Assembly (NCBI GenBank): GCA_963746865.1
Contig: CAVVDB010000007.1
Span: 128,846-192,845 of the forward strand
DNA: 64,000 nt
Source of the DNA: an uncultured Chloroflexia bacterium
GTDB lineage: Bacteria > Chloroflexota > Limnocylindria > Limnocylindrales > CSP1-4
Direction: 5' to 3'
Under the pieces are notes generated by a model. It was not told the origin of the DNA. It saw only the letters and a list, made by a program, of their open reading frames with translations, and did not search any database. Positions 3,839-55,920 of the stretch are shown here, in pieces. Both the position numbers and the translations under genes were made by a program. Within the stretch, counting starts at the first letter, position 1. Every line of letters begins with the position of its first letter.

Positions 3839-3980
3839 CCCCGTCCCGCCGCATGCATCCCAGGCATCAGATTCGCCTGTTGTGAGCGTGGCCACCCCCG
3901 AGTTTCGTCAGAATCGGGCCATGGCCAAGCGCGTACGAGCCGATTCGCATGAGCAGGATGCATACGGGGGCGCGACGGGG
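3839..3980 (-). repeat. family A palindromic repeat, copy 1 (core ATGCAT..ATGCAT 3853-3963, 111 bp)
   Basis: Direct comparison with 9 other copies. Flanks extend the palindrome (CCCCGTCCCGCCGC / GGGGGCGCGACGGGG). Lies between convergent 3' ends. Confidence 0.9.
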
Positions 3981-4041
3981 CGCTGGGGCGGGCGCGGCGC
4001 GGGGGCGCGGGCGCGGGCGCGCGGGGACGCGGGCTGACCGG

Positions 4042-9440: not shown

Positions 9441-9469
9441 GTCGCGGTCGCCGTGTGGGTCGTGTCGCC

Positions 9470-10358: not shown

Positions 10359-10503
10359 GTCAGCGGAGTCCCTTTGGTTGCCGCGCTCGGGTCGCCGGCC
10401 GGGTCTGGCCCCGGGGTCGTCGCCCGTTCGAGTCGGCCGAGCCCCTCGCGCGTCGGGATTATCGCACGGGCGCGCACGAGGGCTCTCGCGAGGCGGGACG
10501 GGC

Positions 10504-10553
10504 GGCCCGCGTAGGCCCGCGAAGGCCCGCGATGGCCGGCGTGGGCCCGCGTA
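10504..10553. repeat. 10-bp tandem repeat x5 (GGCCCGCGNN)
   Basis: GGCCCGCGTA GGCCCGCGAA GGCCCGCGAT GGCCGGCGTG GGCCCGCGTA read directly. Abuts family A copy 2. Confidence 0.8.
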
Positions 10554-10665
10554 TGCATCTCACTCATGAGATTCGAGCCGGACACGCTTGGCCATGCCCC
10601 GATTCGGACAGAAGTCGGCCATGGCCACGCTCACTGATCGCGATTCGCATGAGTGGGATGCATAC
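10551..10665 (+). repeat. family A palindromic repeat, copy 2 (core 10553-10663, 111 bp)
   Basis: ATGCATCTCACTCATGAGATTCG...CGATTCGCATGAGTGGGATGCAT. Lies between the PNPOx-like 3' end and the pdxS 5' end. Confidence 0.9.
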
Positions 10666-19992: not shown

Positions 19993-20107
19993 GCATGCAT
20001 CCTGCTCATGTGAATCGACGTGAACGAGCGTGGCCATCCCCGACTTCTGTCGGAATCGAGGCACCGCCAAGCGTGCAAGACGCCGATCTCATGAGTCAGA
20101 TGCATGT
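19993..20107 (-). repeat. family A palindromic repeat, copy 3 (core 19995-20105, 111 bp)
   Basis: ATGCATCCTGCTCATGTGAATCG...GATCTCATGAGTCAGATGCAT. Lies between the hydratase 3' end and the sigma factor 5' end. Confidence 0.9.
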
Positions 20108-29312: not shown

Positions 29313-30308
29313 ATGACGAGGATCCTGGTGACCGGCGGTGCCGGCTATGTCGGGGCGGTGTCGGCGGCGGCATTCCTCGACGCCGGGCACGAGGTGGTCG
29401 TCCTCGATGACCTGACGACCGGGCATCGGGCGGCGGTGCCGGAGGGTGCACGCCTCCACGTCGGGTCGTACGGCGACCTCGAGGCGGTCACCCGGCTGCT
29501 CGGATCCGAGCGGATCGAGGCGATCCTCCATTGCGCGGCCCGCTCGTTGGTCGGCGAATCGATCGCCGACCCGTCGCGCTACTACGTCGACAACGTCGCC
29601 GGCGGCGTGGCCCTGTTGCAGGCGGCCCGGGCGGCCGGGGTCGGGCGGCTCGTGTTCTCGTCGACCGCCGCGGTCTATGGCGTTCCCGATGCGACGCCGA
29701 TCCCCGAGGACGCCCCGCTCCGGCCGATCAATCCGTACGGCGAGACCAAGCGCACCTTCGAGGGAGCACTCGCCTGGTACGGCCGGGCCTACGGGTTGCG
29801 CAGCGTCTCGCTCCGCTACTTCAACGTGGCCGGCGCGACCGATGCGCTGGGCGAGGACCACGACCCCGAGACCCACCTCGTGCCCAATGTCCTGGCCGCG
29901 GCCGAGGGTCGTCTCGAGTTGACCGTCTTCGGCGACGACTACCCGACCCCCGACGGCACCTGCATCCGCGACTACATCCACGTCGCCGACCTGGCCGACG
30001 CCCACCTTCGAGCGATCGAGGCGACCGCGCCCGGCGACCCCCGAACCGATGCCGCGCTCGTGTGCAACCTCGGGAACGGCGGCGGGTTCTCGATCCGCGA
30101 GGTGATCGCGGCGGCCGAGTCGGTCGTGGGGCGGCCGATCCCGCGGACCATCGGCCCGCGCCGGGCAGGCGATCCCCCGGTCCTCGTCGCCCGCTCGACC
30201 CGGGCCCTGGAGGTCCTCGGCTGGCGGCCCGCACGACCCACCCTCGAGGAGATCGTCGGCTCAGCCTGGGCCTGGCGCCAGGCCCACCCCGGCGGCTACC
30301 CCGACTGA
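29313..30308 (+). CDS. galE: UDP-glucose 4-epimerase
   Basis: 331 aa. ILVTGGAGYVG, SSTAAVYG, YGETK, RYFNVAG, DGTCIRDYIHVADLA. Confidence 0.9.
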   Translation: MTRILVTGGAGYVGAVSAAAFLDAGHEVVVLDDLTTGHRAAVPEGARLHVGSYGDLEAVTRLLGSERIEAILHCAARSLVGESIADPSRYYVDNVAGGVALLQAARAAGVGRLVFSSTAAVYGVPDATPIPEDAPLRPINPYGETKRTFEGALAWYGRAYGLRSVSLRYFNVAGATDALGEDHDPETHLVPNVLAAAEGRLELTVFGDDYPTPDGTCIRDYIHVADLADAHLRAIEATAPGDPRTDAALVCNLGNGGGFSIREVIAAAESVVGRPIPRTIGPRRAGDPPVLVARSTRALEVLGWRPARPTLEEIVGSAWAWRQAHPGGYPD

Positions 30309-31942
30309 CGGCCTCCGCGGCCGGCCCACCGCCGGCCTGAGCCGCCCGGGGCCCTCGCATGCATCCCACTCATAGGAATCGCCCCGAACGAGCGTGGCCA
30401 CCCCTCATTTCTGTCGATTCGGGGCCATGGCCAAGCGTGCAGAAGCCGAATCTCATGAGTGAGATGCATGCCCGGACGCCCCGGGCCCCCGCGGGTCGAA
30501 CGCACTACCGAGGCGTCCCAGGCCCTCCCGCCGGCGACAGCCGTCTCCGGTGGCGCCACCGGCCCCATCCCCGGCGCCAACATCGTTTCTCCCGACCCCG
30601 CCCAGTCGTCGCGCACCGGCCAGACCAGCCACAACCCGATGAGCATCGTGACGAGCAGGCTCAAGACCGCGACCTGATAGGCGCCGTTGTCGAACGTGTC
30701 GAGCAGCAGGAAGATGATCGCGCCGTACAGCAGCTGGCCGATGACCTGCGAGCCCTTGCCGACCAGCCCATAGATCCCGAAGAACTCGCCGATCTTGTCG
30801 GGCGGCGACAGCCGGACCATCAGCACGCGATCGGCTACGGTGACTCCGCCAAGGCCGCTCCCGAGGATCGCCCCCGCGATCAGGAACGGCACGATCCCGG
30901 CCGACCCGAACCCGATCGCCACGCCGCCGAGCACCAGCCCGACCGCCCACGACAAGAGCACCCAGATGAGCGTCCGCTTGGGTCCCTGCCGGTCGCACAG
31001 CCAGCCCCACACGAAGCTCATGACGATCGCCACCAGCGTCAGCATCAGCAGGATCAGGTTCGCCGAGGACTCGGACATGTCCATCGTCTTCACGACCACG
31101 ACGCTCATCACGATGATCACCGTGTTGACCGCATCGGAGTAGAAGAACCGACCGACCAGGAACCGGATCAATCCCGGGACCTCGCGCGCATGCGCGATCG
31201 ACCGACGCAGCTGCCCGAACGAATCCCGGATCTCGGCCGCGGTGATCGCCGGCTGGTCGGAGATCCGCTTCTCGCGCACGAACAGGAAGATCGGGATCGA
31301 GAAGACCAGGAACAGGATCGCGGTGAGCCGGAACCGATCGACCACCGCGATGTCCAGGAGCGCGATCAACAACCCGACGAAGACCGTCCCGCAGTACCCG
31401 ATCCCGGTCCCGAGACCGGATAACTTGCCCCGGGTCGCCGGCAGGCTGACCGACTTCAACGTCGCGTCGTAATAGATGAGGGCCGCCTGGTACGCGAAGT
31501 TGGCGACGATGAACAGGACGAGGCCGACGATCGGCGCCAGGTCCGCGATGAAGAAGGTCGCGCCGACGCACAGCAGCGTGAAGAACAACAGGAACGGCAT
31601 CCGCCCCGGACCCCGGTCCGAGAAGGCGCCCAGGATCGGTGAGACCAGCGCATTGATCCCGACGCTGATGACGACCGCGATCGACAGGAACAGGTTCCCG
31701 TCGCGCTCGCCGAACTGGTTGTCGTTGACCAGGTAGAGCCCGATCGCTCCCGAAACGACCGCGAACGAGAAGATCGTGTTCGCGAAGTCGTACAGGGCCC
31801 ACGACGCCGGGACGATCGCCCGGCCGCTGGGGGTGAGCCCGGCGAGCCCGCGTGGAGGCGCCGGGGACGCTGGACCGCGGGACGGGGCGGCGCTCGTCAC
31901 CGGCCGATGATAGCCGTCCAGACCGGGGTAGGATTCACCCAT
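30296..31942 (-). CDS. MFS transporter (UMF1/Atg22-like family) whose ORF reads through a family A repeat
   Basis: From Met at 31942 (MGESYPGL...). WALYDFANTIFSFAVV and many TM helices. The last TM ends about 100 codons before the stop, and the tail includes [16 protein letters not shown] translated from the repeat. Confidence 0.8.
   Translation of the reverse strand: MGESYPGLDGYHRPVTSAAPSRGPASPAPPRGLAGLTPSGRAIVPASWALYDFANTIFSFAVVSGAIGLYLVNDNQFGERDGNLFLSIAVVISVGINALVSPILGAFSDRGPGRMPFLLFFTLLCVGATFFIADLAPIVGLVLFIVANFAYQAALIYYDATLKSVSLPATRGKLSGLGTGIGYCGTVFVGLLIALLDIAVVDRFRLTAILFLVFSIPIFLFVREKRISDQPAITAAEIRDSFGQLRRSIAHAREVPGLIRFLVGRFFYSDAVNTVIIVMSVVVVKTMDMSESSANLILLMLTLVAIVMSFVWGWLCDRQGPKRTLIWVLLSWAVGLVLGGVAIGFGSAGIVPFLIAGAILGSGLGGVTVADRVLMVRLSPPDKIGEFFGIYGLVGKGSQVIGQLLYGAIIFLLLDTFDNGAYQVAVLSLLVTMLIGLWLVWPVRDDWAGSGETMLAPGMGPVAPPETAVAGGRAWDASVVRSTRGGPGRPGMHLTHEIRLLHAWPWPRIDRNEGWPRSFGAIPMSGMHARAPGGSGRRWAGRGGRQSG
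30357..30471 (-). repeat. family A palindromic repeat, copy 4 (core 30359-30469, 111 bp)
   Basis: ATGCATCCCACTCATAGGAATCG...GAATCTCATGAGTGAGATGCAT. Lies inside the 3' tail of the MFS ORF. Confidence 0.9.
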
Positions 31943-39265: not shown

Positions 39266-40141
39266 ATGACCGCTCAGGCACCTAGACCAGGCCTGGGCGG
39301 TCTTCCGCATTCCGGGGCGGGCGCGCGGCCGCGGCCCAAGGCCCGACCCAGGAAGCGGCGGTTCTCCGATCCGGGCCGGACCTGGGCGAAGCGCCTCGAG
39401 CGCTACCGGCCAGGCCTCGTGCCGTACGTGCTCGACGAATTGGCCGGGGCCTACGGGCGGCCGACCTGGCAGCGCCGGCTCGATCCGACCAGCGAGCTGA
39501 TCCTGACCATCCTCACCCAGAACAGCGCCGACACCAATGCCGAGGTCGCGTTCGAGGCGTTGCGCGCGCGGTACCCGGGCGACGGCGCGGTCCAGGCCCA
39601 TAACCCGGGCGCCGGCTGGGGCGGCGACGGGCTGCCCGACGGGGTGGCGCCGGACTGGGCCGCGGTCGAGTTCGCGCCACTCCCCGAGCTGGTCGACACG
39701 ATCCGGCCGGGCGGCCTCGCCAACCAGAAGGCGCCCCGGATCCAGGCGACCCTGCGCCACATCCGCGAGCAGCGCGGCGACTACGCCCTCGAATTCCTGG
39801 GCGAGATGACCGCCCTCGACGCCCGCGACTGGCTGGTCGCCATCGACGGCATCGGCAAGAAGACGGCCTCGGTGCTGCTCCTGTTCAGCTTCGGCCTGCC
39901 GCTCATGCCGGTGGATCGGCACGTGGAACGGGTCGCCCATCGGGTCGGGTTGATCGGACCCAAGGTGTCGGCCGATGACGCCCATGATCTGTTCCTCGGG
40001 ATGCTCGAGCCGGACCAGATGTACGAGGCCCACGTGAACCTCATCCAGCACGGACGGGTGGTCTGTCACGCTCGCCGGCCCGACTGCGCCGCCTGTCCGC
40101 TGCGGCCCCGCTGCCGGTTCGTCGACCCCCGGGCGCCCTGA
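39266..40141 (+). CDS. endonuclease III-like HhH-GPD base-excision DNA glycosylase with 4Fe-4S cluster loop
   Basis: LILTILTQNSADTNA, IDGIGKKTASVLLLF, PVDRHVERV, CHARRPDCAACPLRPRC. Confidence 0.8.
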   Translation: MTAQAPRPGLGGLPHSGAGARPRPKARPRKRRFSDPGRTWAKRLERYRPGLVPYVLDELAGAYGRPTWQRRLDPTSELILTILTQNSADTNAEVAFEALRARYPGDGAVQAHNPGAGWGGDGLPDGVAPDWAAVEFAPLPELVDTIRPGGLANQKAPRIQATLRHIREQRGDYALEFLGEMTALDARDWLVAIDGIGKKTASVLLLFSFGLPLMPVDRHVERVAHRVGLIGPKVSADDAHDLFLGMLEPDQMYEAHVNLIQHGRVVCHARRPDCAACPLRPRCRFVDPRAP

Positions 40142-40201: not shown

Positions 40202-40906
40202 GTGGTACTGATGCGCCCACCGACCAATGCAACCAGGGGCATGATCATCCGTAACCATCCGCCCGCCCGCTCCGGACCCCACCCCCGACTCTCGTTTCGA
40301 CGCCGTCGCGCGCCCGATGACAAGGGTCAGGTGCTGGTCGAATTCGCCCTCGTCATCCCGATCTTCCTGCTGCTGTTCATGGCCATCGTGGAGTTCGCGT
40401 TCGTCTTCAACGCGATCCTGTCGGTCAACTTCGCGGCCCGCAATGCCGCGCTGATCGCCGCCGAAGCCGGGAACGCGATCAACTCCGACTGCATCATCCT
40501 GGCCAGCGTCGAGAGCGACGTCCAGGCACCGGCGGACCGCGCCCGGATCAACCAGGTCGAGATCTATCGGTCGACCCTGACCGGCGCCGTGTGGGGCGGC
40601 AGCACGCCCACGACCTACGTGCGAAGCGGGAGCAAGACCTGCACCTATCCCGACCGGCCGCCGATCACGGTGCCGTACCAGCTCGCGTCCGGCGGCGGCG
40701 CCGACGGCTATCCCGAGATCGACCGCTGCAACATCCTGAAGGGCTGCAAGCCGGACACCCACGGTGTCACCCACACCGGTGTCGATCACGTCGGCGTGCG
40801 GATCAGCTACAACCACCAGTACAAGACGCCGATCCGGACCCTGTTCAGCGGCCCTAGCCTGAGCTTCGACCGGGCCAACAGCATGCGCATGGAGCCCGTC
40901 CTGTGA
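40202..40906 (+). CDS. TadE-like protein (start uncertain)
   Basis: GQVLVEFALVIPIFLLLFMAIVEFAF signature. Alternative ATG starts at 40211 and 40241. Confidence 0.75.
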   Translation: MVLMRPPTNATRGMIIRNHPPARSGPHPRLSFRRRRAPDDKGQVLVEFALVIPIFLLLFMAIVEFAFVFNAILSVNFAARNAALIAAEAGNAINSDCIILASVESDVQAPADRARINQVEIYRSTLTGAVWGGSTPTTYVRSGSKTCTYPDRPPITVPYQLASGGGADGYPEIDRCNILKGCKPDTHGVTHTGVDHVGVRISYNHQYKTPIRTLFSGPSLSFDRANSMRMEPVL

Positions 40907-41584
40907 GCCGCCTCGGGCAGCTCCGTCGGGCTCGAGCCCAGCGCCGCGAGGAAGGCCAGAGCCTGGTCGAGTTCGCGCTGATCCTGACCGTCCTCCTGCT
41001 CCTCCTGTCGGGGATGCTCGAGTTCGGTCTCATGTTCGACCAGCACCAGACGCTCGAGACCGCGACGCGCGAAGGCGCCCGCGTCGGGATCCGCCCTGAC
41101 GAACGGCGGCGGCGACCTCGGCTGCGACCTCGCCCAGGGCCAGTCGCCCGATCGCGACCTCGTCGACCCGCAGATCATCGCCGCCATCCAGCGCGTGCTC
41201 GTCTCGCCGGGGTCGCGGGTCAAGCCGGACAAGGTCACCGAGATCAAGATCTACAAGGTGCTCCTCGGCTCGAGCGGGAGCCCGAACACGACCGGCAACC
41301 AGGACGGGACCGGCAACACCAACGCCAGCATCTGGGTGTACAGCGCCGGGGGTGGCCCGACGGTCGACGGTGCGAATCTCAACTTCCGGATGAAGCCGGG
41401 AACCTCGGACGGGTATCCGGCCTGCACCCGATCCAACGGCAGCCCAGTGCATTCGATCGGGGTCAGTCTGCAGTACACGTACGACCTGGTCTCGCCGCTG
41501 CCGTCCGTCCTGCGGTTCTTCGGCGGCGGCCCGACATCGATCCAGATCACCGACCGAACCATCATGGCCATGAACCCGAGTTGA
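40903..41584 (+). pseudogene. TadE-like protein, one apparent frameshift near 41090
   Basis: GQSLVEFALILTVLLLLLSGMLEFGL in the frame of 40903 (GTGA overlap with the upstream stop). C-terminal part in ORF 41195..41584. Confidence 0.7.
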
Positions 41585-41589
41585 GTGAG

Positions 41590-44055
41590 ATGCCCACCTC
41601 CGACCAGCCCGTCGTGACCGCCCCGAAGTCGAAGCGTGACAAGCGCGCCCGCGGCCAGATCATCGTCATCTTCGCGGCCTCGATCATCGTGTTCATGGGC
41701 CTGTCGGCCATCGTCATCGACGTGTCGTGGTTCCTGTCGAGCCAGATCCGGATGCAGCGCGCGGCCGATGCCGCGGCGCTCGCCGGCGTCGTCCTGCTGC
41801 CCGGCAACGTGCCCGGCGCGGTGACCCTGGCCCGGACCGAAGCGTCGCGCAACGGCTTCACGTCAGGCGTGAACGGGATCACCGTCACCCCGACCCAGGA
41901 CGCGCAGAGCACCCGCCGGATGCAGGTCGTGATCAACGGCCCGGTGAACACCTACTTCGCGCGCGTCCTCGGATTCACCTCGTTCAACGCCAACGTGATG
42001 TCCAAGGCGGAGTACATCCTGCCGGTGCCGATGGGCAGCCCGGAGAACTACTACGGCGTGTTCGGCTTGACCCGAGGGTTGACCGAGACGACGACCACGA
42101 CCGTCACCACCATCGACCCGAGCACCGACGATTCGGGCTTCCGTGTGGCTACCACGTCACCGCTCACGGCCGGGCCGGCGGTCGGCTGGACCACCGTCAA
42201 CCCCACCCCGCCGCCGGCGCCGCCACCGACCGAGCCGTACCGGGTGACTGCCGTACAGGCGAACGGAAACTCCGGGAGCCCGCACCTGTCCACACCGACA
42301 AACGGAGCGATCCAGGTCTTCGGTGGATTCGACCTGACACCGACCCTCGCGACCGGAGAGGTCGTGACCGGGATCCGTGGTGTGGAGGTTTACCTCGACG
42401 ACGCCTGGATCTCCAATACCTGCAACCCCGGTCCGAACCGGATCCAGGTGCAGGTGTCCGAGAACGCCGGCGCGGCGACGCCGAACTGGACAGGCCCCGT
42501 CAATGACAACGAGACTGGGAACCTGGCCGTGGGCAACCCCGGGAACGACTATATCTTCGGCAGTCCGAACAACTTCGGTGATTGGCTCCTGACCGGCGGC
42601 CGCACGTGGTCACCGGGCGTGGGAGGCGTGGCCGATTTCAGCACGACCAACTTCGCTGTCCGCTTGACCGCCGTGAAGAGTGCATGCGGTGCGGCTCCCG
42701 AGATCCGCCTGGATGAGCTGCGGGTGGTGGCCTACTACAACACGACGATCCCGGTCACGACCACGACCACGACCACCACGCCGGTTGCGGACATCAATCT
42801 CCAGGGACCCGGCACGGCCTGCAATCTTGGCGTCGCGAGCTGCGCGAAGGCGGACGGCGCGATCCTCAACCCGCGCGGGTTCTGGGGCACGCTCAATAGC
42901 CAGGGCGCGGAGAACGTGAACGGCGACGCGCACCAGCCGTACTACGACACGCGCACCGGCCAGGTCTCACCGGGTTGCGGCACGATCACGGCCGTGCGCG
43001 CGTGCTATGACCCCAACGAGTACTACAACTATGCCGTCGAGGTCCCACAGGGGGCGACGGGCAACGTCTGGATCTACGACCCCGGCTTCTGCGACGTCAA
43101 CACGGACCGGGGCACCGGTGACCGCTGGTTCGGCGGGACGGCCGGCGTGACGACGACGTACGAGGTGTGGGACACCAACAACACGCTGTACGACCGGGGC
43201 GACGATGGCGTCGGCTTCGTCGGCACCACGCCGAATGCGACGTCGGGCGGCCTGTTCCGCAACATGAGCGCGGGCGACAGCACGATGGGTGGCGACACGA
43301 GCGTGAATGAATGCCTCTACGAGACTGACGACACCTATGGCGATGGCCGCGACTACCACAACCGCTGGTACCTGCTTGCCTCCGGTCTGCCCGGCGGCGT
43401 CGGCGGGCCGAAGATCTATCGCGTTCACACCACCGCGACGGACCCGGCCAATGTGACCCAGCAGCGCGGCACCAACGCCGAGAACAGCTTCGCGATCTAC
43501 GCGTCGGCGTCGAGTGGCACACCAAGGGTCTACGGCCTGGGTGCCATGCAGGCGTTCACGCCGCTGAAGTCGGCGGGCGGCACCGAGTCGTCCGAGTTCT
43601 ACCTCGCCCAGATCGAGAAGGTCCACGCCGGCAAGACGGTCGAGATCTCGCTCTGGGACCCGGGTGACACGAACCCGCTGACGGCCTCCATCGAGATCCT
43701 GATCCCGAATGGCGCGAGCTCATGGACGGCGACCCCGGTCACCTACACCGCCTCGACGGGGACGAACAACTCGGGTCGGGCCGATGGCACCGGCGGCAAA
43801 CCGAACTGCAACACCAACAGCCGCACCAGCGAGAGCACGACCCCGATCAACACGTTCACCTCGGGTGGCAACACCACCGGCAGGTTCAACGGCTGCTGGC
43901 TGGTGATCCAGGCGGTCATCCCCGACGCCTACCAGGCCCTCGCACAGGGCTGGTGGAAGATCAAGTACACGATGACCGGCAACGGCGTCTCCAACGACGT
44001 CACGACCTGGAAGGTCCAGATCCTCGGCAACCCGGTCCACCTCATCGTCAACTAA
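41590..44055 (+). CDS. large TadG-like surface protein (821 aa) with Thr-rich linkers
   Basis: From ATG 41590 within ORF 40903..44055. QIIVIFAASIIVFMGLSAIVIDVSWF is a Tad N-terminal anchor. TETTTTTVTT and VTTTTTTTTP tracts. The large C-terminal region has no family I can name. Confidence 0.7.
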   Translation: MPTSDQPVVTAPKSKRDKRARGQIIVIFAASIIVFMGLSAIVIDVSWFLSSQIRMQRAADAAALAGVVLLPGNVPGAVTLARTEASRNGFTSGVNGITVTPTQDAQSTRRMQVVINGPVNTYFARVLGFTSFNANVMSKAEYILPVPMGSPENYYGVFGLTRGLTETTTTTVTTIDPSTDDSGFRVATTSPLTAGPAVGWTTVNPTPPPAPPPTEPYRVTAVQANGNSGSPHLSTPTNGAIQVFGGFDLTPTLATGEVVTGIRGVEVYLDDAWISNTCNPGPNRIQVQVSENAGAATPNWTGPVNDNETGNLAVGNPGNDYIFGSPNNFGDWLLTGGRTWSPGVGGVADFSTTNFAVRLTAVKSACGAAPEIRLDELRVVAYYNTTIPVTTTTTTTTPVADINLQGPGTACNLGVASCAKADGAILNPRGFWGTLNSQGAENVNGDAHQPYYDTRTGQVSPGCGTITAVRACYDPNEYYNYAVEVPQGATGNVWIYDPGFCDVNTDRGTGDRWFGGTAGVTTTYEVWDTNNTLYDRGDDGVGFVGTTPNATSGGLFRNMSAGDSTMGGDTSVNECLYETDDTYGDGRDYHNRWYLLASGLPGGVGGPKIYRVHTTATDPANVTQQRGTNAENSFAIYASASSGTPRVYGLGAMQAFTPLKSAGGTESSEFYLAQIEKVHAGKTVEISLWDPGDTNPLTASIEILIPNGASSWTATPVTYTASTGTNNSGRADGTGGKPNCNTNSRTSESTTPINTFTSGGNTTGRFNGCWLVIQAVIPDAYQALAQGWWKIKYTMTGNGVSNDVTTWKVQILGNPVHLIVN

Positions 44056-44190: not shown

Positions 44191-44240
44191 ATGCATCTCA
44201 CTCATGAGATTCGCGTCCTGCACGCTGGACGGTGGGTCGC
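44191..44240 (+). repeat. family A left-arm-only half copy
   Basis: ATGCATCTCACTCATGAGATTCGCGTCCTGCACGCTGGACGGTGGGTCGCC matches the left arm, then diverges. Confidence 0.8.
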
Positions 44241-44260
44241 CGCACACGCCCGCCGCGGCC

Positions 44261-44375
44261 GCATGCATCTCACTCATGAGATTCGCGTCCCACACGCTTG
44301 ACGGTGGGTCGATTCCGACGGAATCGGGGGGTGGCCACGCTCATTCGAGGCGATTCCTATGCCTCAGATGCATGC
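44261..44375 (+). repeat. family A palindromic repeat, copy 5 (core 44263-44373, 111 bp)
   Basis: ATGCATCTCACTCATGAGATTCG...CGATTCCTATGCCTCAGATGCAT. Ends 9 bp before the stop of gene 44382..45179. Confidence 0.9.
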
Positions 44376-44381
44376 GGCCCG

Positions 44382-45179
44382 TCAGCGGGGACGAGATCGA
44401 GTGGCCCGCATGAAGGCGGCATAGTCGGCATAGGGTGCGGCCTGCCGTCGGCCGTCGAGCCGGAGCGGTCGAAGCCAGGCCTGCCGTCGGGACTGCGGGT
44501 CGATCATCGCGACGGCCCGGCCGCGGCCGACCTGTGTGCCCTCGCCGGCGACCAGGGCAGACAGGTCGCGAGCTCGCAGCGGGAATCCGGTGGCGAACGT
44601 CGTCCGGTTCGCGACCACACGGTCATCGTTGGCTTCGGTGGCGAGCAGGAGCAGCGATCCGAGGATGCGACGAGGCTGCCACCCGCGCCGTCGGGCCGCC
44701 GTGACCGCGTCCCGCTCGTACCAGCTCAGCGAGCGCTCGATGGCGCCCAGGTCGTGGATCTCCGTCTTGACCTCGATCACGAGGAGCAGCCCGGTCGGCG
44801 GGTGATAGGCGAGCACATCGATGAATCCACGGGACCGGTTGCCCCCGATCTCGACCTCCGTGTCGACCTCCCAACCGTCGCGACGCAGCCGCCTCGCGAT
44901 GTAGGCCGTACACAGCGCGTGCGCAGGCTCCTTCTGACGCTGCCGATCGCCGAGGAACGGGGCGTCCACGGTGATGACCAGTCGCGCGCCCATCGCGGCG
45001 AGCAGGCGTTCAGCCGTGTCGATGGTCAGGTCGTCCTGACGGCCGTGCTCGATCCGCGAGACGGCCGACTGCGACAGGCCGACTCGCCCACCAAGCTCCC
45101 GCTGAGGCCAGCCGATCGCCCTGCGGATGGTGGCGACGGCATCTCCCACGATCAGGCGGCCAGGTTGGTCGATCGGCAT
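44382..45179 (-). CDS. XRE-family HTH protein with a C-terminal PD-(D/E)xK-like nuclease-fold motif
   Basis: 265 aa. HTH QRELGGRVGLSQSAVSRIEHG. GFIDVLAY...LLLVIEVKTE gives D...E-x-K spacing typical of restriction-endonuclease-like folds. Paralog at 52987..53640. Confidence 0.6.
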   Translation of the reverse strand: MPIDQPGRLIVGDAVATIRRAIGWPQRELGGRVGLSQSAVSRIEHGRQDDLTIDTAERLLAAMGARLVITVDAPFLGDRQRQKEPAHALCTAYIARRLRRDGWEVDTEVEIGGNRSRGFIDVLAYHPPTGLLLVIEVKTEIHDLGAIERSLSWYERDAVTAARRRGWQPRRILGSLLLLATEANDDRVVANRTTFATGFPLRARDLSALVAGEGTQVGRGRAVAMIDPQSRRQAWLRPLRLDGRRQAAPYADYAAFMRATRSRPR

Positions 45180-45258
45180 CGCCGATTCATAGCAAGGGGC
45201 GCTTATCCGGCACGTATCCGGCGCTCACCTCGCCGCCATACCGGTGTCGCGACGGGCG

Positions 45259-45373
45259 GTATGCATCCTGCTCATGAGAATCGGCTCGAACGAGCGTGGC
45301 CACCCCCGACTTCTGACGGAATCGGCACACCGTCAAGCGTGTACGACGTGAATCTCATGAGTGAGATGCATGC
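45259..45373 (-). repeat. family A palindromic repeat, copy 6 (core 45261-45371, 111 bp)
   Basis: ATGCATCCTGCTCATGAGAATCG...GAATCTCATGAGTGAGATGCAT. Centre is inverted relative to copy 5. Confidence 0.9.
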
Positions 45374-45427
45374 GGCGGCGGCGGCGGGCGGGGAGGCGCG
45401 GCGGGCCCGCCCTCGTCACGTTGGGCG

Positions 45428-45542
45428 GTATGCATCCTGCTCATGAGAATCGGCTCGAACGAGCGTGGCCACCCCCGACTTTTGACGGAATCGGCACACC
45501 GTCAAGCGTGTACGACGTGAATCTCATGAGTGAGATGCATGC
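45428..45542 (-). repeat. family A palindromic repeat, copy 7 (core 45430-45540, 111 bp)
   Basis: Differs from copy 6 at one position that I could see (CTTCTGACGG vs CTTTTGACGG). 169-bp period. Confidence 0.9.
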
Positions 45543-45616
45543 GGCGGCGGCGGCGCGCGGCGGCGGCGGCGGGCGACGCGGCGGCGACGGGCGCACGCGG
45601 CGGCGACGGGGGCGGG

Positions 45617-47067
45617 CTACAGATCCGAGGCGGGCTCCCCGGGGAGCGTCAACCGGAACGAGGCGCCACGGTCCACGGCCGCCGGGTCCAGCACCAGGTC
45701 CCCACCCATCCCGCGCATCAACGCCCGAGACACATACAACCCCAGCCCGCTGCCATTCCCGCTCGTCCGGCCCGCGACCCCCCGCTCGAACCGGCCGAAG
45801 AGCCACGCCCGGTCGCTGTCGTCCAGCCCCCGCCCGTGGTCGGTGATGGTCGTCCACAACGACCGCGCCCCCACATCCACCCCGATCTCCACGACCACGA
45901 CCCCCTCGCCGTACTTGACGGCGTTGTCCAGCAGCGCCCACAACACCTGGTCCAGCTGGTCGCCGTCGGCCACGGCCAGCCAGTCGGCGGCCCCGTCACG
46001 CAATTCCATGGCGCGGTCGCCGACCCCCAGCGCCTCCCAGGCCCGCAGGATCCGTGGCGCGATCGCCAGCACGTCGGCATTCGGCCGCGGCGGCTGCGAC
46101 TCCAGCCGGCTCACCAGCAACAGCTGCTGGACCATCCGCGTCAGGCGATCGGTCTGCTCCGAGATCACCGTCAGCCGCGGATCCGCGCCGCGCCACCGCC
46201 ACCGCCACCGCCACCGCCACCGGCGGCCAGCGCCTCGGCATTCGACTTGATCGAGGTCAACGGCGTCTGCAGGTTGTGGCTGACGCCGCGCAGGAAGTCG
46301 TCCTTGACCTCGCTCAGCCGGCGCAACTGGACGTTCTTCTCCTGGACCTGGCCGAACAGCTCCGCATTCCGGATCGCCACGCTGATCTCGATCGCGTAGA
46401 GATCCAGCAGCGCCTGGTCGGCCCGTTCCCAGGTCTGGGTGGCCGGAAGCACGGCCAGCAGCAACCCCATCCGCTCGTCGCCGGCCCGCAGCTCGGACCG
46501 GATCGGCACCGACACGCCCGGGATCCGCTCCTCCTCCTCGACGCTGTCGGGGTCCACGAAGCGCAGCTCGGCCGAGATGAACCCGAACGCCGTCTCGGCG
46601 TCGCGCGCGGCACGCTCGGCCAAGGCAACGGGCCCGTCGCGCGGCTCGGCCGATTCGACCGCCGCCAGGATCAGCCCCAGTTGTCGATTGCGACGCTGGG
46701 TGTCGCCGGCGAGTCGGTTGTGGCTCTCGGCCAGTTGGGCGAGCACGTCGCTGCCCTGGACCGGGATCGGCTGGCTCAGGTCGCCGGCCGAGACCCGCGA
46801 CACCGCACGCGAGATGTCGCGCAGCGGCCTGACGAGATCGAGCCCGATCGCCGCGCCACCCACGATCCCGACCGTCACCGCGATGGCGAACATGAACAGC
46901 AGGAGCCGCGAGCCGACCTGCGCATCGACCGCCCCGGTGGCGATCACCAGGATCCCGAAGATCCCGAGCGGGATGATCGCGGCGGCCAGGATGGTCAGGG
47001 TCAGGCGTGTCTGGAAGGAGAGGACGCGACGCTCGGGGGTGGGCTCGGGGGTCGGCGAGGGGATCAT
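45617..47067 (-). pseudogene. sensor histidine kinase (TM-HAMP-GAF-like-HisKA-HATPase), frame break next to a poly-Gly microsatellite
   Basis: ORF 46171..47067 ends ...FLRGVSHNLQTPLTSIKSNAEALAAGGGGGGGGGGAARIRG. ORF 45617..46168 continues [LT]VISEQTDRLTRMVQQLL...LDNAVKYG...GSGLGLY. A 1-nt indel near 46184-46190 joins them. Confidence 0.85.
46192..46221. repeat. hexanucleotide microsatellite (GCCACC)x5, i.e. (GGTGGC)x5 on the coding strand, encoding Gly10
   Basis: Read directly. Lies between the H-box helix and the following helix of the kinase DHp domain. Confidence 0.9.
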
Positions 47068-47077
47068 CCCTGTCCCG

Positions 47078-47809
47078 TCATGGCTCCGTGGCGGACGACA
47101 CCAGGCGATAGCCGACGCCGCGCACGGTGATCAGGTGGCGCGGGTGGTTCGGGTCGGTCTCGAGCTTCTGGCGGAGGCGCCGCATCGTGACCCAGACATA
47201 GGACGGCTCGGCCTCGTCGGTGACGGCCCAGCCGCGGTTGAGGAGCGTTTCCGTGGTGACCGTCTGGCCGAGGTTGGCGGCCAGGGCGAAGAGCAGCCGC
47301 GACTCCGTGGGGGTCAGCTGGACCGGCTGGCCGGCGACGACCGCCTGGCGTTTATGCAGTTCGAGGGAGAGATCCGGCCCCAGATCGAGCCCCTTGCGGG
47401 GGACGCGCTCGCCGACCCGGCGAAGGACCCGCTGGATTCGAGCCCGCAGCTCTGCATAGTTATACGGTTTGGTGACGTAGTCCTCGGCGAACTCGTCGAG
47501 CAGGTCGGCCTTGTTGTCGCCGGCATCGATGGCCGACAGGACGATGATCGGCAGGTCGGCGCGGGCCTTGACCTCGCGGGCGAGGGTCAGGCCGTCCATC
47601 CGCGGCATCAGCAGGTCGATGATCAGGAGGTCGGGCCAGGCGAGATCGAGCCGGCGGAGGGCCTCGTCGCCGTCGCGGGCCGTGGTGACATCGAAGCCGT
47701 CCAGCCGAAGCTGCTCGGCGAGCGGCACCAGCAGATCGCGGTCGTCGTCCACGAGCAGGATCCTTGGGGCCACAGGCCCGTGGGCCCTCGACGGCGCGCC
47801 GTTGAACAT
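47078..47809 (-). CDS. OmpR/PhoB-family response regulator
   Basis: 243 aa. ILLVDDD, DLLIIDLLMPRMDG, winged-helix LTPTESRLLFAL...ITVRGVGYRL. Confidence 0.9.
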   Translation of the reverse strand: MFNGAPSRAHGPVAPRILLVDDDRDLLVPLAEQLRLDGFDVTTARDGDEALRRLDLAWPDLLIIDLLMPRMDGLTLAREVKARADLPIIVLSAIDAGDNKADLLDEFAEDYVTKPYNYAELRARIQRVLRRVGERVPRKGLDLGPDLSLELHKRQAVVAGQPVQLTPTESRLLFALAANLGQTVTTETLLNRGWAVTDEAEPSYVWVTMRRLRQKLETDPNHPRHLITVRGVGYRLVSSATEP

Positions 47810-47855: not shown

Positions 47856-48312
47856 GCATGCATCTCACTCATGAGATTCGCGTCCTGGCACGCTTGACGG
47901 TGGCCCCAGATCGACAGAACTCGGGGGGTGGCCACGCTCGTTCGGGGCGATTTGTATGAGCAGGATGCATACCGGGCGCGCGGGAAGGGGCGAGGAGGGG
48001 CGAGGCGCCGGGCATGCATCTCACTCATGAGATTCGCGTCCTGGCACGCTTGGCGGTGGCCCCAGATCGACAGAACTGGGGGGTGGCCACGCTCGTTCGG
48101 GGCGATTCGTATGAGCAGGATGCATACCGGGCGCGCGGGAAGGGGCGAGGCGGGGCGAGGCGCCGGGCATGCATCTCACTCATGAGATTCGCGTCCTGCA
48201 CGCTTGGCGGTGGCCCCAGATCGACAGAACTGGGGGGTGGCCACGCTCGTTCGGGGCGATTCGTATGAGCAGGATGCATACCGGGCGCGCGGGAAGGGTG
48301 AATAGGATGCAT
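47856..48312 (+). repeat. tandem array of three family A copies (cores 47858-47970, 48014-48125, 48169-48279) plus a terminal right-arm fragment (48301-48312)
   Basis: 156/155-bp period. Conserved linker ACCGGGCGCGCGGGAAGGGGCGAGG[A/C]GGGGCGAGGCGCCGGGC between copies. Confidence 0.9.
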
Positions 48313-50668: not shown

Positions 50669-51880
50669 GTGATCCAGGAACCGATCCAGCCAGTCCAGGC
50701 ACCGCCCACGGCGACCGCCAAGCCCCGCTCGAGCAACACGCTCAAGATCGGGCTCGTGGCCGCGCTGTGCCTCGCGCTGATCGTTCCCGTCGTGATCGCC
50801 ATCGCGGCCAATTCGGCGCCGTCGTCGCAGGACCCGCTCGGGCTCGCCGCGGGCGCCTCGGATGCACCGGCCGCGGCCGGTTCGGCCGCGCCGAACAAGG
50901 TCGATGGCACCGGCGACAAGGGCGACCGGAAGGGCTTCGACTTCGGACGGGGCGGCGCCGGCCGCGGGCCGATCACCATCCGCTCGATCAACGGCAACAG
51001 CCTGGGGCTCGGGACCGACGACGGCTGGACGCGGACGATCGTCGTCGAGTCGACGACCACGATCACCAAGGGCGGGCAGCCGGTCGCGCTGAGCACGCTG
51101 AGCGTCGGTGACGAGATCCGGTTCAGCCAGAAGAAGAACGACGACGGCACCTACACGATCACCGCCATCGTCCTGCCGACCCCGAAGGTCGCCGGCAAGG
51201 TGACCGTGGTGACCGACACGATGATCTCGGTCGACGTCAAGGGCGACACTGACAAGGTCATCACCGTCAACGGCTCCACGGTCTACAAGTTCGGCAAGGA
51301 TGGTGCCGCGAAGAAGGCCGATGTGACCGTCGGCGACCGGATCACCGCGCAGGGCGAGGTGAGCGGCACGACCTTCACCGCCATCACCGTCACGATCGCA
51401 CCCGATGTGGCCGCCGGCAAGGTGACCGCGGTGACCGACACGACCATCACGGTCGATGGCCGGGGCGACACGAACACGGTCATCACCGTCAACGGCTCCA
51501 CGGTCTACAAGCTGGGCACGGATGCCGCGAAGAAGGCCGACGTGACCGTCGGCGACAAGATCGGTGCGCAGGGTGAGCTGAACGGGACGACCTTCACCGC
51601 CAGCACCGTCACGATCGCGCCCGACGTGGCCGGCGGCGTGGTGACCGCCAAGACCGCCGACTCCATCACGGTCAAGGGCCGGGACGACAAGACGACCGTC
51701 ATCCACGTCTCCTCCAAGACGACCTACAAGGTCCACGGCAAGGACGCCGCGACCATCGCCGACATCGCCGTGGGCGACTGGGTCGGGGCGACCGGCGTCT
51801 CGCGCGCCGACGGGTCCCTTGACGCCACGATCGTGGGCGGGATGAACCCGAAGGGCTTCAAGCTGCCGAAGGCCCCGTAG
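50669..51880 (+). CDS. membrane-anchored secreted protein with 4-5 tandem DUF5666-like beta domains
   Basis: 403 aa. GGAGGA before the GTG start. N-terminal TM IGLVAALCLALIVPVVIAIAA. Repeated units ...VAGKVTxVTDTxITVDxxGDTxxVITVNGSTVYKxG...KKADVTVGDxIxAQGE... Confidence 0.65.
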   Translation: MIQEPIQPVQAPPTATAKPRSSNTLKIGLVAALCLALIVPVVIAIAANSAPSSQDPLGLAAGASDAPAAAGSAAPNKVDGTGDKGDRKGFDFGRGGAGRGPITIRSINGNSLGLGTDDGWTRTIVVESTTTITKGGQPVALSTLSVGDEIRFSQKKNDDGTYTITAIVLPTPKVAGKVTVVTDTMISVDVKGDTDKVITVNGSTVYKFGKDGAAKKADVTVGDRITAQGEVSGTTFTAITVTIAPDVAAGKVTAVTDTTITVDGRGDTNTVITVNGSTVYKLGTDAAKKADVTVGDKIGAQGELNGTTFTASTVTIAPDVAGGVVTAKTADSITVKGRDDKTTVIHVSSKTTYKVHGKDAATIADIAVGDWVGATGVSRADGSLDATIVGGMNPKGFKLPKAP

Positions 51881-52001
51881 CCGCGAGTCCCGCCCCGTAG
51901 CTGAACGCGGTCCCGCCCGGCCGGTGCCCAGGCCGGGCGCGCACCGCCCCACCCCGCCCCGCCCCGCCTCGCCCCGCCCCGCCTCGCGCCCCCAGCGCAG
52001 G

Positions 52002-52191
52002 CCCGCCATTCACCCCACGGCTGAACGGACCGACGACCGGCGCGGCGGCGGTCCGGTGAGTCACCCCGCGACTGAACTGACCCCGGCAACCCGTTCGAGG
52101 CGCCCTCGCCGGTCAACTGAGTCGTCCGGTGCATCGTTCCGACCTTGCGCGTCGGCCCGCCGGTCGTAACAGGCGCCCCGTGAATAGGGGG
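52002..52191 (+). repeat. family B imperfect palindrome, copy 1 (190 bp)
   Basis: CCCGCCATTCACCCCACGGCTGAACGGACCGACGACCGG...CCGGTCGTAACAGGCGCCCCGTGAATAGGGGG. Compared directly with copies 2 and 3. Confidence 0.9.
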
Positions 52192-52209: not shown

Positions 52210-52753
52210 TCAGCAGTCGAACACGAACCAGCACAACTCGTTGCGCAGCCGTTGGTCGTCAAGCACGAGTTCCCGGATCTCGTCGGGGAGCTGGGCACGC
52301 TGCCAGTCGCACTCCAGGTGGCCGGCCGCCTCGCCCTCGTCCTCCGGCGCTGCCGCTCGCACCGCCCTGATCGCGTAGGCCGCTGCACCCAGTTCATGGG
52401 CCGCCACATGGCCGACCGCCGCGGCCTGGCCGGCAGCGTACGCGGCATGCCGGGCTGCCCCACGCAGGTCCCTGGCCGCTGCGTTCGCATGGCCGGCCGC
52501 CGAGCGGGCCTCTGCCCACGTGACCTCACCCCGCGCCCAGGCACGCCCGAGCTCGATCGCCCGCCCGTGGACGGTCGTCCTTCGGCCGAGCCTGCTCGAA
52601 GTGGGGCAGCACGTGCTCCGCGCAGTCAGCCGCCCACAGCGCAAGGAGCCGATGATCGTCGTCCTTGAGGGTCCCGCCGCGGCGCACGGTGATGAACCGC
52701 GGATCCCGGATCTTGGGAAGGATCACCTGGTCTGCCCACCTCGCTCGGAACAT
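52210..52753 (-). pseudogene. conserved actinobacterial-type helical protein (family I recall being annotated as putative immunity protein), one apparent frameshift near 52545
   Basis: N-terminus MFRARWADQVILPKIRDPRFITVRRGGTLKDDDHRLLALWAADCAEHVLPHFEQARPKDDRPR in ORF 52526..52753. Continuation RAIELGRAWARGEV...AAHELGAAAYAIRAV...LVLDDQRLRNELCWFVFDC in ORF 52210..52644. Confidence 0.5.
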
Positions 52754-52787
52754 CTCTCGGAATGATGCCCGTCCTCAGCCGACCCGG

Positions 52788-52976
52788 CCCGCCATTCACC
52801 CCACGCCTGAACCGACCGATGACCGACGCGGCGGTGGTCCGTTGAGCCGCCCCACGACTGAACTGACCCCCAGGAGGCCCGTCCAGGCGCGCTCGCCGGT
52901 CAGGTGAGTCGTCGGGTGCATCGTTCCGGCAGGGCACGCCCGTTCGCCGGTCGTAACAGGCGCCCGGTGAATGGCC
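52788..52976 (+). repeat. family B imperfect palindrome, copy 2 (189 bp)
   Basis: CCCGCCATTCACCCCACGCCTGAACCGACCGATGACCG...CCGGTCGTAACAGGCGCCCGGTGAATGGCC. Confidence 0.9.
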
Positions 52977-52986
52977 GACGGGTCCC

Positions 52987-53640
52987 TCACAGCAGGATGA
53001 GCGACCAGCCACCTGGGTCCCTCCCCTCCCTAAGGGCCCGCAACGCATCCCGGGCTGGGACAGGGAACATCTCCCGGAATGACGCCTCCGCGGCCCGGAT
53101 GGCAGCCCGGTTCGCTCGGGTGTCGGAGACGAGCAGGATCACCTGTTCGATGCCGGAGTCCCGCGCCTTGAGTGCGATCCGGCGTTGGAGTGCCTGGCTA
53201 TCCACGATCCGCGTCTCGGCCTCGACGCCGACCAGCTTTGGCGCCCCGATCACGTGGAGGTCCCAAGCTCGCTGATCTCCGGCGATCGGGACCGGAACTT
53301 CGGACCGCAACGCGAGCGGTTTGCCGACATATGGCCGGAACCGGTCGATGAGGTGGGTCTGCCCCTGATCACGCAGCGGAGCTCCGCCCGGATAGAGCTT
53401 GAGCGAGAGGTCCAACCCGAGGACACTCGCGATGCGGCACAGCTGCTCGAGCGACACGGTGGCCAGGACGCCACGCTCGATCCGGCTCACCTGGGACTGT
53501 GACAGATCGCACGCCTTCGCAACGAAGGCCTGGCTTAGACCGAGTCCGATCCTTGTGGTCCGAAACTCCTCCCCGGTCGTCCGACGGATCCGGTGGCAGA
53601 GGCGCAGTCCCCGATCAAGGAGGCGCTGACGAGATGGCAT
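52987..53640 (-). CDS. XRE-family HTH protein with PD-(D/E)xK-like C-terminal domain (paralog of 44382..45179)
   Basis: 217 aa from Met at 53640 within ORF 52987..54501. HTH LSQAFVAKACDLSQSQVSRIERG. RAWDLHVIG...LVGVEAETRI aligns with the D...EVK region of the paralog. Confidence 0.6.
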   Translation of the reverse strand: MPSRQRLLDRGLRLCHRIRRTTGEEFRTTRIGLGLSQAFVAKACDLSQSQVSRIERGVLATVSLEQLCRIASVLGLDLSLKLYPGGAPLRDQGQTHLIDRFRPYVGKPLALRSEVPVPIAGDQRAWDLHVIGAPKLVGVEAETRIVDSQALQRRIALKARDSGIEQVILLVSDTRANRAAIRAAEASFREMFPVPARDALRALREGRDPGGWSLILL

Positions 53641-53693
53641 GAGCGTAGGGTGACGAAGGGCACGTAGCTGCGGCTTACCGAGCCCCGCCAAGG

Positions 53694-53885
53694 CCCGCCA
53701 TTCACTCCACGCCTGAACCGACCGACGACCGACCCGACGGCGGTCCGTTGAGCCACCCGACGACTGAACCGACCCCCGGCAGCCCCTCCAGACGCCCTCG
53801 ACGGTCACCTGAGCCATCGGGTGCATCGTTCCGGCAGGGCACGCCCGCCCGCCGGTCGTAACAGGCGCCCGGTGAATAGCGGGGG
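53694..53885 (+). repeat. family B imperfect palindrome, copy 3 (192 bp)
   Basis: CCCGCCATTCACTCCACGCCTGAACCGACCGACGACCG...CCGGTCGTAACAGGCGCCCGGTGAATAGCGGGGG. Confidence 0.9.
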
Positions 53886-54597: not shown

Positions 54598-54754
54598 GAC
54601 CGAGGTCGGAAACCCCCGCCGACCCCGAAGGTACCGGCTCCGCTAGTCCATTCGTGCCGTCGTGCCTGGGCACGATCCCAAGGACCATCTGGACAGGACT
54701 CTTTGTGCGTCTCTACATCGACGCGAAGCCGGTCCCGAATGGAGACGAAACCAC

Positions 54755-55920
54755 ATGGCCTCATTCCCCAAGCCGACCGGTCGGACCCGGAAGCCGCTCG
54801 TGTTGCTCATGGCAGGGGCGCTTACGCTGACCCTGGCGGGCTCAGTCGGGGCGGCCAATCCTCCGGGCTGGACCAAGATCAACGCCTGCGTCGTCACCAA
54901 GACGAACGTCGTCAAGATCCGCGTCAAGCGCTACTCCGTGGCCAGCCTCTGCGGGCCGGGTGAGCGACAGTTCACGTGGGCCGTCAAGGGTCCGCAGGGC
55001 GCAGCCGGCCCGGCCGGCGCGACGGCGCGAATGGCACCAATGGCACGAACGGATCCAATGGCGCGACCGGCGCCACCGGTCCGGCCGGAGCCACAGGTTC
55101 TGCGGGCGCCGCCGGCGCGGCTGGCGCCGTGGGTCCGACCGGGGCTCAGGGTCCGACCGGACCCCAGGGACCGACCGGTGCTGATGGCGCAGCTGGTGCC
55201 ACGGGCGCCGACGGGGCTGCCGGCGCGACAGGCGCAGACGGCACGAACGGCAGCGATGGTGCTGCCGGTCCGACCGGCGCCCAGGGCCCGAGCGGCGCCG
55301 ATGGCGCGGCCGGGGCGACGGGAGCCGACGGCACGAACGGAACCGACGGGACCAACGGCAGCGACGGCGCTGTCGGCCCGACCGGTGCCGATGGCACGAA
55401 CGGGACCAACGGGACCGACGGGACCAACGGCGCTGATGGCGCCACGGGTCCGACCGGTGCCCCAGGCGCCGACGGAACCAACGGCACGGATGGCGCCGCG
55501 GGTGCCACCGGCCCTGCCGGTGCGACCGGTCCGGCTGGTCCGACCGGTGCCCCAGGCGCTGACGGAACCGACGGAACCAACGGAACCAACGGCGCACCGG
55601 GCGCCACGGGCGCAACCGGTGCCGCGGGCGCGACCTTCAACAGCTGGCGTGCCGGCTCGGCGACCACCGTCGCCGGGACGACCACGACCTTCACGATCGC
55701 CTTCTCGAGCTCGATCGGGACGACGAACTACCAGGTCAACGTCGAGGCCTCTCCGGCTTCGGCCACCGGCCTCGGTGGGACGAGCAGTGGTTGCCAGTAC
55801 AGCATCACCAACAAGACCGTGAACGGGTTCACGTTCTCGTGCCTCAACGTCGGCAGCGGCGTCGCTCTCGACTTCGACACGGGTGTGACCTTCGGTTACA
55901 TCGCGATCCCGAACAACTAA
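54755..55920 (+). pseudogene. secreted collagen-like triple-helix-repeat protein with globular C-terminal domain, one apparent frameshift near 55020
   Basis: Signal-peptide-like N-terminus MASFPKPTGRTRKPLVLLMAGALTLTLAGSVGAA in the frame of ORF 54662... Roughly 65-70 Gly-X-Y triplets (GTNGTDGTNGADGATGPTGAPG...) and a non-repetitive approx 100-aa tail in ORF 54976..55920. Confidence 0.8.

Follow-up and report, generated by a model that had tools for sequence, protein, structure and literature searches.

The stretch analyzed here, referred to as the window, comprises 64,000 nucleotides (nt) from an uncultured Chloroflexia bacterium of the lineage Limnocylindria (GenBank assembly GCA_963746865.1, contig CAVVDB010000007.1, positions 128,846 to 192,845). 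Its minus strand encodes protA (44382..45179), a protein of 265 amino acids (aa) with an XRE-type helix-turn-helix (HTH; aa ~7-62), a linker, a predicted PD-(D/E)xK nuclease domain (aa ~85-180) and a conserved extension. The gene is flanked on both sides by copies of a hairpin-forming repeat, which we call family A. The pairing of gene and repeat is genuine and was found again in dozens of genomes and across several clades of paralogs.

The family A unit is an imperfect palindrome of 111 nt, which folds as a single strand with z-scores of -3.1 to -3.3 relative to shuffled sequences. Both arms end in ATGCATC-N3-CTCATGAGA(A/T)TCG, and the interior is conserved yet asymmetric (GAGCGTGGCC...CCAAGCGTG). 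BLASTN searches within the window recovered the copies on both sides of protA, with E-values of 1e-29 to 1e-54, exactly where the first-pass annotation of this DNA had placed them. The 3' side holds one full copy (44263..44373, minus strand), located 8-9 nt past the stop codon, and one half copy consisting of a single arm (44191..44240, minus strand), which was found by both BLASTN and the profile search. The 5' side holds two copies: one lies 82 nt upstream of the ATG (45261..45371, plus strand) and the other is its tandem duplicate (45430..45540, plus strand), 97-99% identical at a period of 169 nt. GC-rich, (GCG)n-like spacers fill positions 45372-45429 and 45541-45615, between and after the tandem copies, so that the duplicated unit is the repeat plus its spacer. 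The region has a G+C content of 70%.

Orientation calls for such near-palindromic elements depend on their asymmetric centers. The best nhmmer strand was '-' for the copy at 44263-44373 and '+' for the copies at 45261 and 45430, and an inverted pair (I1) with 134-nt arms of 84% complementarity spans the gene. The left and right copies at protA are in opposite orientation, as had been claimed from their centers.

Seven further copies of family A are located away from protA, at five other sites in the window. Three of these form a tandem array beyond the adjacent two-component operon (47858-47970, 48014-48125 and 48169-48279, minus strand), inverted relative to the copies at 45261-45540 and with a period of approximately 155 nt. 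The four isolated copies are located 39-79 nt past stop codons: 3853..3963 (plus strand; 79 nt past the stop of gene 4042-4623(-)), 10553..10663 (minus strand; 39 nt past gene 8832-10514(+)), 19995..20105 (plus strand; 39 nt past gene 19141-19956(+)) and 30359..30469 (plus strand; 51 nt past gene 29313-30308(+)). Comparison of family A with Rfam, at both gathering and permissive thresholds, gave no relevant match. Neither sigma-70 promoters nor intrinsic terminators were detected when the sequence was scanned for them.

A promoter-like segment, GATA..GATAAG..GCTATGAAT, was read from the sequence between the upstream element and protA (45180..45260, minus strand), followed after 5-6 nt by the ATG. 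It looks like the promoter of a leaderless or near-leaderless mRNA. The segment is also kept in a close relative (L001, 9941-10012; loci from other genomes are numbered with the prefix L) and upstream of the homologues in L162-L164. It stays constant where the repeat ends change.

The domain assignments of protA rest on profile scans and on a structural model. The HTH passed the Pfam HTH_3 threshold (E = 1.3e-8, 35.1 bits against a gathering cutoff of 23), in agreement with the XRE assignment proposed earlier, and the domain resembles the repressors HipB and SinR and controller proteins in sequence and superimposes on them structurally. The sole Pfam match in the C-terminal part was a weak, sub-threshold hit to REase MTES_1575, and scans against NCBIfam and PADLOC returned the HTH only. 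None of the Pfam, NCBIfam and PADLOC scans matched an HUH/Y1 transposase. The AlphaFold 2 model had a mean predicted local distance difference test score (pLDDT) of 88.7 over the whole protein; for residues 82-265 the pLDDT was 93.1 and the predicted template modeling score 0.90. The modeled secondary structure consists of helix 85-100, strands 104-112, 117-126 and 131-138, helix 144-164 and strand 171-179. This order corresponds to the alpha-beta-beta-beta-alpha-beta core of the PD-(D/E)xK superfamily, in which strands 2 and 3 carry the D...(D/E)xK motif.

Foldseek searches with the C-terminal domain returned mostly PD-(D/E)xK nucleases (probability 1.0, E-values down to 1.7e-4), among them XisH, the R2 restriction-like endonuclease, AF1548, Can2, Hjc and McrC. 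The template modeling scores of these matches were 0.35-0.39 at 11-18% identity, and because they are low the domain is predicted to be a distant member of the fold. The residues E108, E110, D121, E136 and K138 were invariant across 27 homologues of 57-88% identity, which, together with the model, bears out the earlier suggestion of a restriction-endonuclease-like fold with intact catalytic residues D121, E136 and K138. Thus, based on the domain scans and the modeled fold, we describe protA as an XRE HTH fused to a predicted PD-(D/E)xK nuclease; the same evidence rules out an HUH/Y1 enzyme, as the first-pass annotation had held. A single-sequence search returned 283 homologues and a profile search 868. 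Nearly all were unannotated or called XRE regulators, and the named sources were all Chloroflexota or Limnocylindria metagenome-assembled genomes.

The pairing of gene and repeat was followed in 80 loci from a scan of species-representative genomes, nearly all titled Chloroflexota and mostly Limnocylindria. An nhmmer profile, iterated from the family A copies of the window, was searched blindly over 1.1 Mb of homologue loci. In many loci, among them L002, L003, L005-L009 and L020-L022, elements immediately flank the homologue on either side. Outside the window, 34 matches fell within the 36.6 kb adjoining the gene, as compared to 7 in the other 653 kb, which corresponds to an 87-fold higher density. 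The control set covered 328 kb in 80 metagenome loci of the same bacterial class, taken around orthologues of another, unrelated gene of the window; a single locus contained a family A match. A profile-free comparison gave the same picture: for 21 of the 70 homologues, the similarity between upstream and downstream flank exceeded the 99th percentile of 523 control genes. Self-BLAST, used to detect palindromes de novo, was noisy at 70% GC; it yielded a 5-7-fold enrichment only and was less informative than the profile search and the comparison of flanks. Distant relatives of 32-39% identity (L055-L081) showed no flanking repeats and were set aside as a separate subfamily.

Three metagenome contigs of 947-3102 nt that carry close homologues (L162, L163 and L164) start or stop inside the flanking repeats, which is expected if the repeats are present in multiple copies in those genomes. 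The flanking repeats probably fragment Limnocylindria assemblies. Many members of the protA family were found on contigs of approximately 0.9-1.5 kb.

The comparison of the window with L001 showed that the gene and its repeats evolve apart from their surroundings. The backbone of the two loci is 87-89% identical in nucleotide sequence over approximately 20 kb, and the neighboring response regulator is 98% identical in amino acid sequence, whereas protA has diverged to 64% identity in protein and 70% in DNA sequence, and the intergenic regions that bear the repeats fail to align. One helix of the protein reads SQSAVSRIEHG in the window type and TQGWVSRVENG in the L001 type. The element interiors are homologous. 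The terminal ~15 nt, on the other hand, have been switched at every copy (ATGCATCCTGCTCAT in the window and ATTCCGCTCAGTAAT in L001); the copy at the orthologous site, which lies between the response regulator and the gene that follows, is no exception. When 35 elements were aligned, the terminal stem showed covariation.

Across 10 genomes, the distances between repeat ends were strongly correlated with the distances between protA sequences (Mantel r = 0.82, p = 2e-4), but not significantly with those of the neighboring response regulator (Mantel r = 0.14). The partial correlation of repeat ends with protA remained 0.82 when the regulator was controlled for. Copies unlinked to the gene also bear the end type of their own genome, as seen for the four dispersed copies in the window and for L099 as compared to L021. 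Locus L099, which shares its contig with L021, bears an element of the L021 type at the site that matches the window copy at 19995-20105. At this site, the element was undetected in all but one of approximately 60 relatives with enough downstream sequence. Judged from these sequence comparisons, the repeats and protA co-diverge independently of the genome backbone.

The position of the gene is stable. In approximately 30 loci, the order response regulator/kinase, protA and HhH-GPD glycosylase is kept, and the protA family was absent from the viral contigs and plasmids searched. This distribution indicates that protA is a resident, vertically inherited gene and not a mobile one. Its neighbors are the repeats, a two-component system, Tad genes and the glycosylase; no toxin, methyltransferase or restriction gene is located beside it. 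A toxin-antitoxin pair and the controller of a restriction-modification system were considered and rejected on these grounds.

Two features of the neighborhood set the window and L001 apart from most other genomes. The response-regulator/histidine-kinase operon (45617-47809 in the window) is inverted in these two loci relative to most others (L002, L006, L009 and so on), and it is bounded in both by mutually inverted family A copies; the inversion is the outcome that recombination between inverted repeats would give. In the same two loci, Tad/TadE-like pilus genes (40202-44055, plus strand, in the window) separate protA from the glycosylase gene (39266-40141), which is located directly downstream of protA in most other genomes.

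The first-pass annotation had proposed, as a check, to ask whether the paralogs of protA are flanked in the same manner. Seven non-syntenic paralogs are flanked (L017, L032, L037, L044, L046, L047 and L052), with one repeat family per clade; where two paralogs share a genome, their repeat families differ. Family members are also encoded in closed or near-closed Limnocylindria assemblies such as CAVPYV010000001 (2.8 Mb, with two paralogs) and OY969885.1. The window itself contains a distant paralog, protB (52987..53640, minus strand), in which both domains were recovered (hhalign, 96.7%) and E-x-E replaces E-x-K. It had been described as bracketed by an unrelated repeat, family B, and it does sit between two of three direct copies of this long hairpin of approximately 200 nt (51991-52191, 52779-52982 and 53683-53885, plus strand), which together bracket an Imm5-like gene and protB. 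Family B is a purely local triplet with no further copies in the window, no flanking repeat was detected at the L001 counterpart of protB, and neither a precise empty site nor a target duplication could be read around family B in L001.

Several other observations concern the surroundings of protB. The protein is 71% identical to its counterpart in L001 (2652-3362), whereas the adjacent genes are 83-87% identical in nucleotide sequence, and it thus diverges far faster. Family B copies 1 and 2 enclose the Imm5-like putative immunity gene (52210-52644, minus strand; Pfam PF21805, E = 5e-20); the matching interval in L001 is approximately 700 nt shorter (338 nt as compared to 1,070 nt), and the gene is unmatched there. 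The gene at 50669-51880 contains three coding repeats of approximately 219 nt (51082-51730), with similar repeats in L001 at 3849-4411, and the open reading frame at 54662-55822 contains a 9-nt-periodic array (55033-55500), with a similar array in L001 at 969-1488.

We give roughly an even chance to the reading that protA is a sequence-specific HTH-nuclease, single-copy and vertically inherited, which is coupled to its own hairpin repeats in a manner reminiscent of the repetitive extragenic palindromic (REP) doublets called REPINs and their REP-associated tyrosine transposases (RAYTs), with unrelated machinery that would act through cleavage and repair copying. Binding, cleavage and any role of protA in copying the repeats are inferred. 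In this scheme, two family A copies would be kept beside protA and a variable number elsewhere, just past the 3' ends of genes. The protein would read the lineage-specific repeat ends of approximately 15-20 nt, which form an inverted pair on every element, and the nuclease domain would cut at the element or close to it, with duplex DNA or an extruded hairpin or cruciform as the substrate. Elements would then be spread, homogenized or replaced when the cut is repaired from another copy. A homing or gene-conversion route seems more plausible than true transposition, because a hydrolytic nuclease cannot itself join strands. If cuts are repaired from other copies, a change in the specificity of the protein would therefore be fixed together with a change in the repeat ends.

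A bolder version of this proposal, which we offer tentatively and hold to be possible but doubtful, is that family A represents the first REPIN-type system without an HUH enzyme. A domesticated HTH-PD-(D/E)xK nuclease would spread hairpins by cleavage and homology-directed copying, specificity and ends would be re-programmed jointly on short timescales, and several mutually exclusive pairs would coexist per genome.

A number of results weigh against the coupling of nuclease and repeats in this form. The best flank-to-flank match is direct in approximately 18 other loci and inverted in approximately 5, the inverted cases besides the window being L001, L010, L017, L021 and L031; the inverted flanks reported earlier are therefore correct for the window and these few loci but not as a general pattern, and the mostly direct arrangement is unlike that of RAYT loci. 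The detectable copies in most relatives are essentially only the two beside the gene. What is conserved may thus be the pair of flanking copies and not a population of dispersed ones, and because copies in relatives are essentially limited to these two, the window genome may represent an unusual expansion of family A. Of the REP/RAYT-like repeat population suggested by the first-pass annotation, the flanking has held up in dozens of genomes, while the dispersed copies have proved rare in most relatives.

The co-divergence signal also has a weak side. The divergence of the repeat ends shows a stronger correlation with the nuclease domain than with the HTH, which makes the HTH no more than a candidate for reading the ends. 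As the majority of the copies in the comparison are linked to the gene, recombination of the whole cassette could give much of the same signal. As for mobility, an empty site was sought downstream of orthologues of the gene at 19141-19956, but homology stops at the stop codon in all relatives and no precise empty site could be read; a target-site duplication was not recovered, with none clear in the GC-rich flanks. Finally, we know of no enzyme with only a PD-(D/E)xK domain that mobilizes DNA.

Among the alternatives, the one that survives best takes protA as an autoregulated XRE repressor. The elements would be large operator or insulator modules with end half-sites that allow looping, the nuclease-like domain would serve oligomerization or effector sensing, and the dispersed copies would be regulon sites or decayed duplicates. 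The kinship of the HTH with HipB, SinR and controller-protein repressors fits this idea, as do the conserved promoter-like segment that adjoins the upstream element and the near-restriction of copies to gene flanks in most genomes. The element ends, moreover, often hold local palindromes of 17-21 bp, the size of an operator (for example GAGTCGGGAGGCGACTC in L052). We nevertheless regard an operator function as unlikely. The invariance of D121, E136 and K138 together with E108 and E110 in 27 sequences points to catalysis, and the entire element of approximately 111 nt, asymmetric interior included, is kept alike on both sides of the gene. The dispersed copies are located past stop codons rather than in promoters, and autoregulation gives no reason for a protein and its sites to outpace their neighbors in evolution.

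A less probable alternative, which we consider quite improbable, is that repeat, gene and repeat form a mobile or excisable cassette, either composite or resembling the attC sites of integrons, that moves by recombination between direct copies. Solo copies would then be footprints or landing sites, and the nuclease would be cargo or part of an addiction or defense function. The direct orientation of the flanking copies in most genomes, the flanked paralogs at non-syntenic sites and the divergence of gene and flanks as a unit, apart from the backbone, all agree with a cassette. The size of the elements (approximately 111-125 nt) and their genome-specific homogeneity also recall chromosomal attC sites, such as the Vibrio cholerae repeats. 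Against this stand the constant chromosomal position of the main clade in approximately 30 genomes, the absence of the family from viral contigs and plasmids, and the location of solo copies next to conserved housekeeping genes. No near-identical extra copies of the gene were seen.

The integron version in particular was rejected, since the RYYYAAC/GTTRRRY core sites are absent from the element ends and Rfam gave no match; an integrase was not looked for genome-wide. An ordinary insertion sequence (IS) was also considered and set aside. The elements do have terminal inverted repeats of the kind found in IS and in miniature inverted-repeat transposable elements (MITEs), but no clear target-site duplication was found in the GC-rich flanks; the cognate IS was sought in the window only.

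It is very improbable that the elements are REP- or MITE-like hairpins or terminators moved by another enzyme that merely gather in the intergenic regions around protA: the window copies do occupy several intergenic regions past gene ends, like generic REP elements, and a RAYT or IS is possible elsewhere in a genome of which 64 kb were in view, but the 87-fold density at the protA flanks over many genomes, the separate repeat family of each paralog clade, repeat ends that follow protA and not the backbone, and the near-absence of elements from the 328 kb of control loci in the same bacterial class all argue otherwise.

If the coupling of a host-resident nuclease to its own repeats is functional, long-lived and vertically inherited repeat populations tied to one such enzyme arose at least twice, with unrelated folds. 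The relationship between REPINs and RAYTs would then be a general evolutionary outcome and not something peculiar to HUH transposases. A functional coupling would also mean that there is a family of at least several hundred uncharacterized, fast-diversifying, sequence-specific HTH-nucleases, with candidate targets that can be read from the flanks of each gene. On the practical side, metagenome assemblies of Limnocylindria, a lineage that is abundant in soil and freshwater, appear to break at these repeats, which may also be behind rearrangements such as the inverted two-component operon beside protA.

A search of the full-text literature gave no matching description, consistent with the earlier suggestion that the system is undescribed. 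To our knowledge, the layout of a nuclease gene flanked by repeats is so far known only for REP/RAYT, with an unrelated type of enzyme. The known proteins that resemble parts of protA differ in architecture. HipB, SinR and the controller proteins of restriction-modification systems share the N-terminal domain and bind palindromic operators as dimers, but have no nuclease domain. XisH (the excision factor of the fdxN element) and the R2 endonuclease, which are the best structural matches of the nuclease domain, as well as TnsA of Tn7 and Hjc, share the fold, and several of them have mobile-element ends or branched DNA as substrates. Unlike protA, none of these proteins carries an XRE HTH, and flanking by dispersed repeats of their own is not known for any of them.

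Similar partial likenesses are seen for known repeat systems. The attC sites of integrons (Vibrio cholerae repeats) and of clusters of attC sites lacking integrases (CALINs) are imperfect palindromes of approximately 60-140 nt, homogeneous within a genome, located after open reading frames and direct around a gene. Family A differs in that it has no R''/R' core motifs and no integrase was seen in the window, synteny is kept, and solo copies are located by housekeeping genes. IS200/IS605 TnpA and palindrome-associated elements also involve the recognition of subterminal hairpins and give rise to short non-autonomous derivatives, but the protA locus has no Y1 transposase, its position is fixed, and whole palindromes rather than half-ends are located on each side.

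The closest comparison is with the REP/REPIN-RAYT systems (Nunvar 2010; Bertels & Rainey 2011, PMC3116915; PMC5581495). REP units are 20-40 nt long with a GTAG or CGTC head (PMC3733652), whereas family A-type ends read ATGCATC..., ATTCCGC... or GATCGA..., with no such heads. The defining feature of RAYTs is lacking in protA, which is an XRE HTH with a predicted PD-(D/E)xK hydrolase in place of an HUH/Y1 domain, and covalent strand transfer in the HUH style would be unavailable to an enzyme of this type. Another difference is the rate of evolution, as protA and the repeat ends diverge much faster than the neighboring genes.

The organization, in contrast, is shared. The imperfect palindrome of approximately 111 nt in family A resembles a REPIN, which consists of two inverted REPs. 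The gene is, as in REPIN/RAYT systems, a single-copy, vertically inherited nuclease gene between hairpin repeats that are also dispersed outside genes. The window shows this layout of a flanked gene with a dispersed family, with few dispersed copies in most relatives, and vertical inheritance with clade-specific families is supported by the approximately 30 syntenic loci, by the separate families of the paralog clades and by the Mantel correlation. In both systems each protein clade has a repeat family of its own, several pairs can occur per genome, and the size of the repeat population varies.

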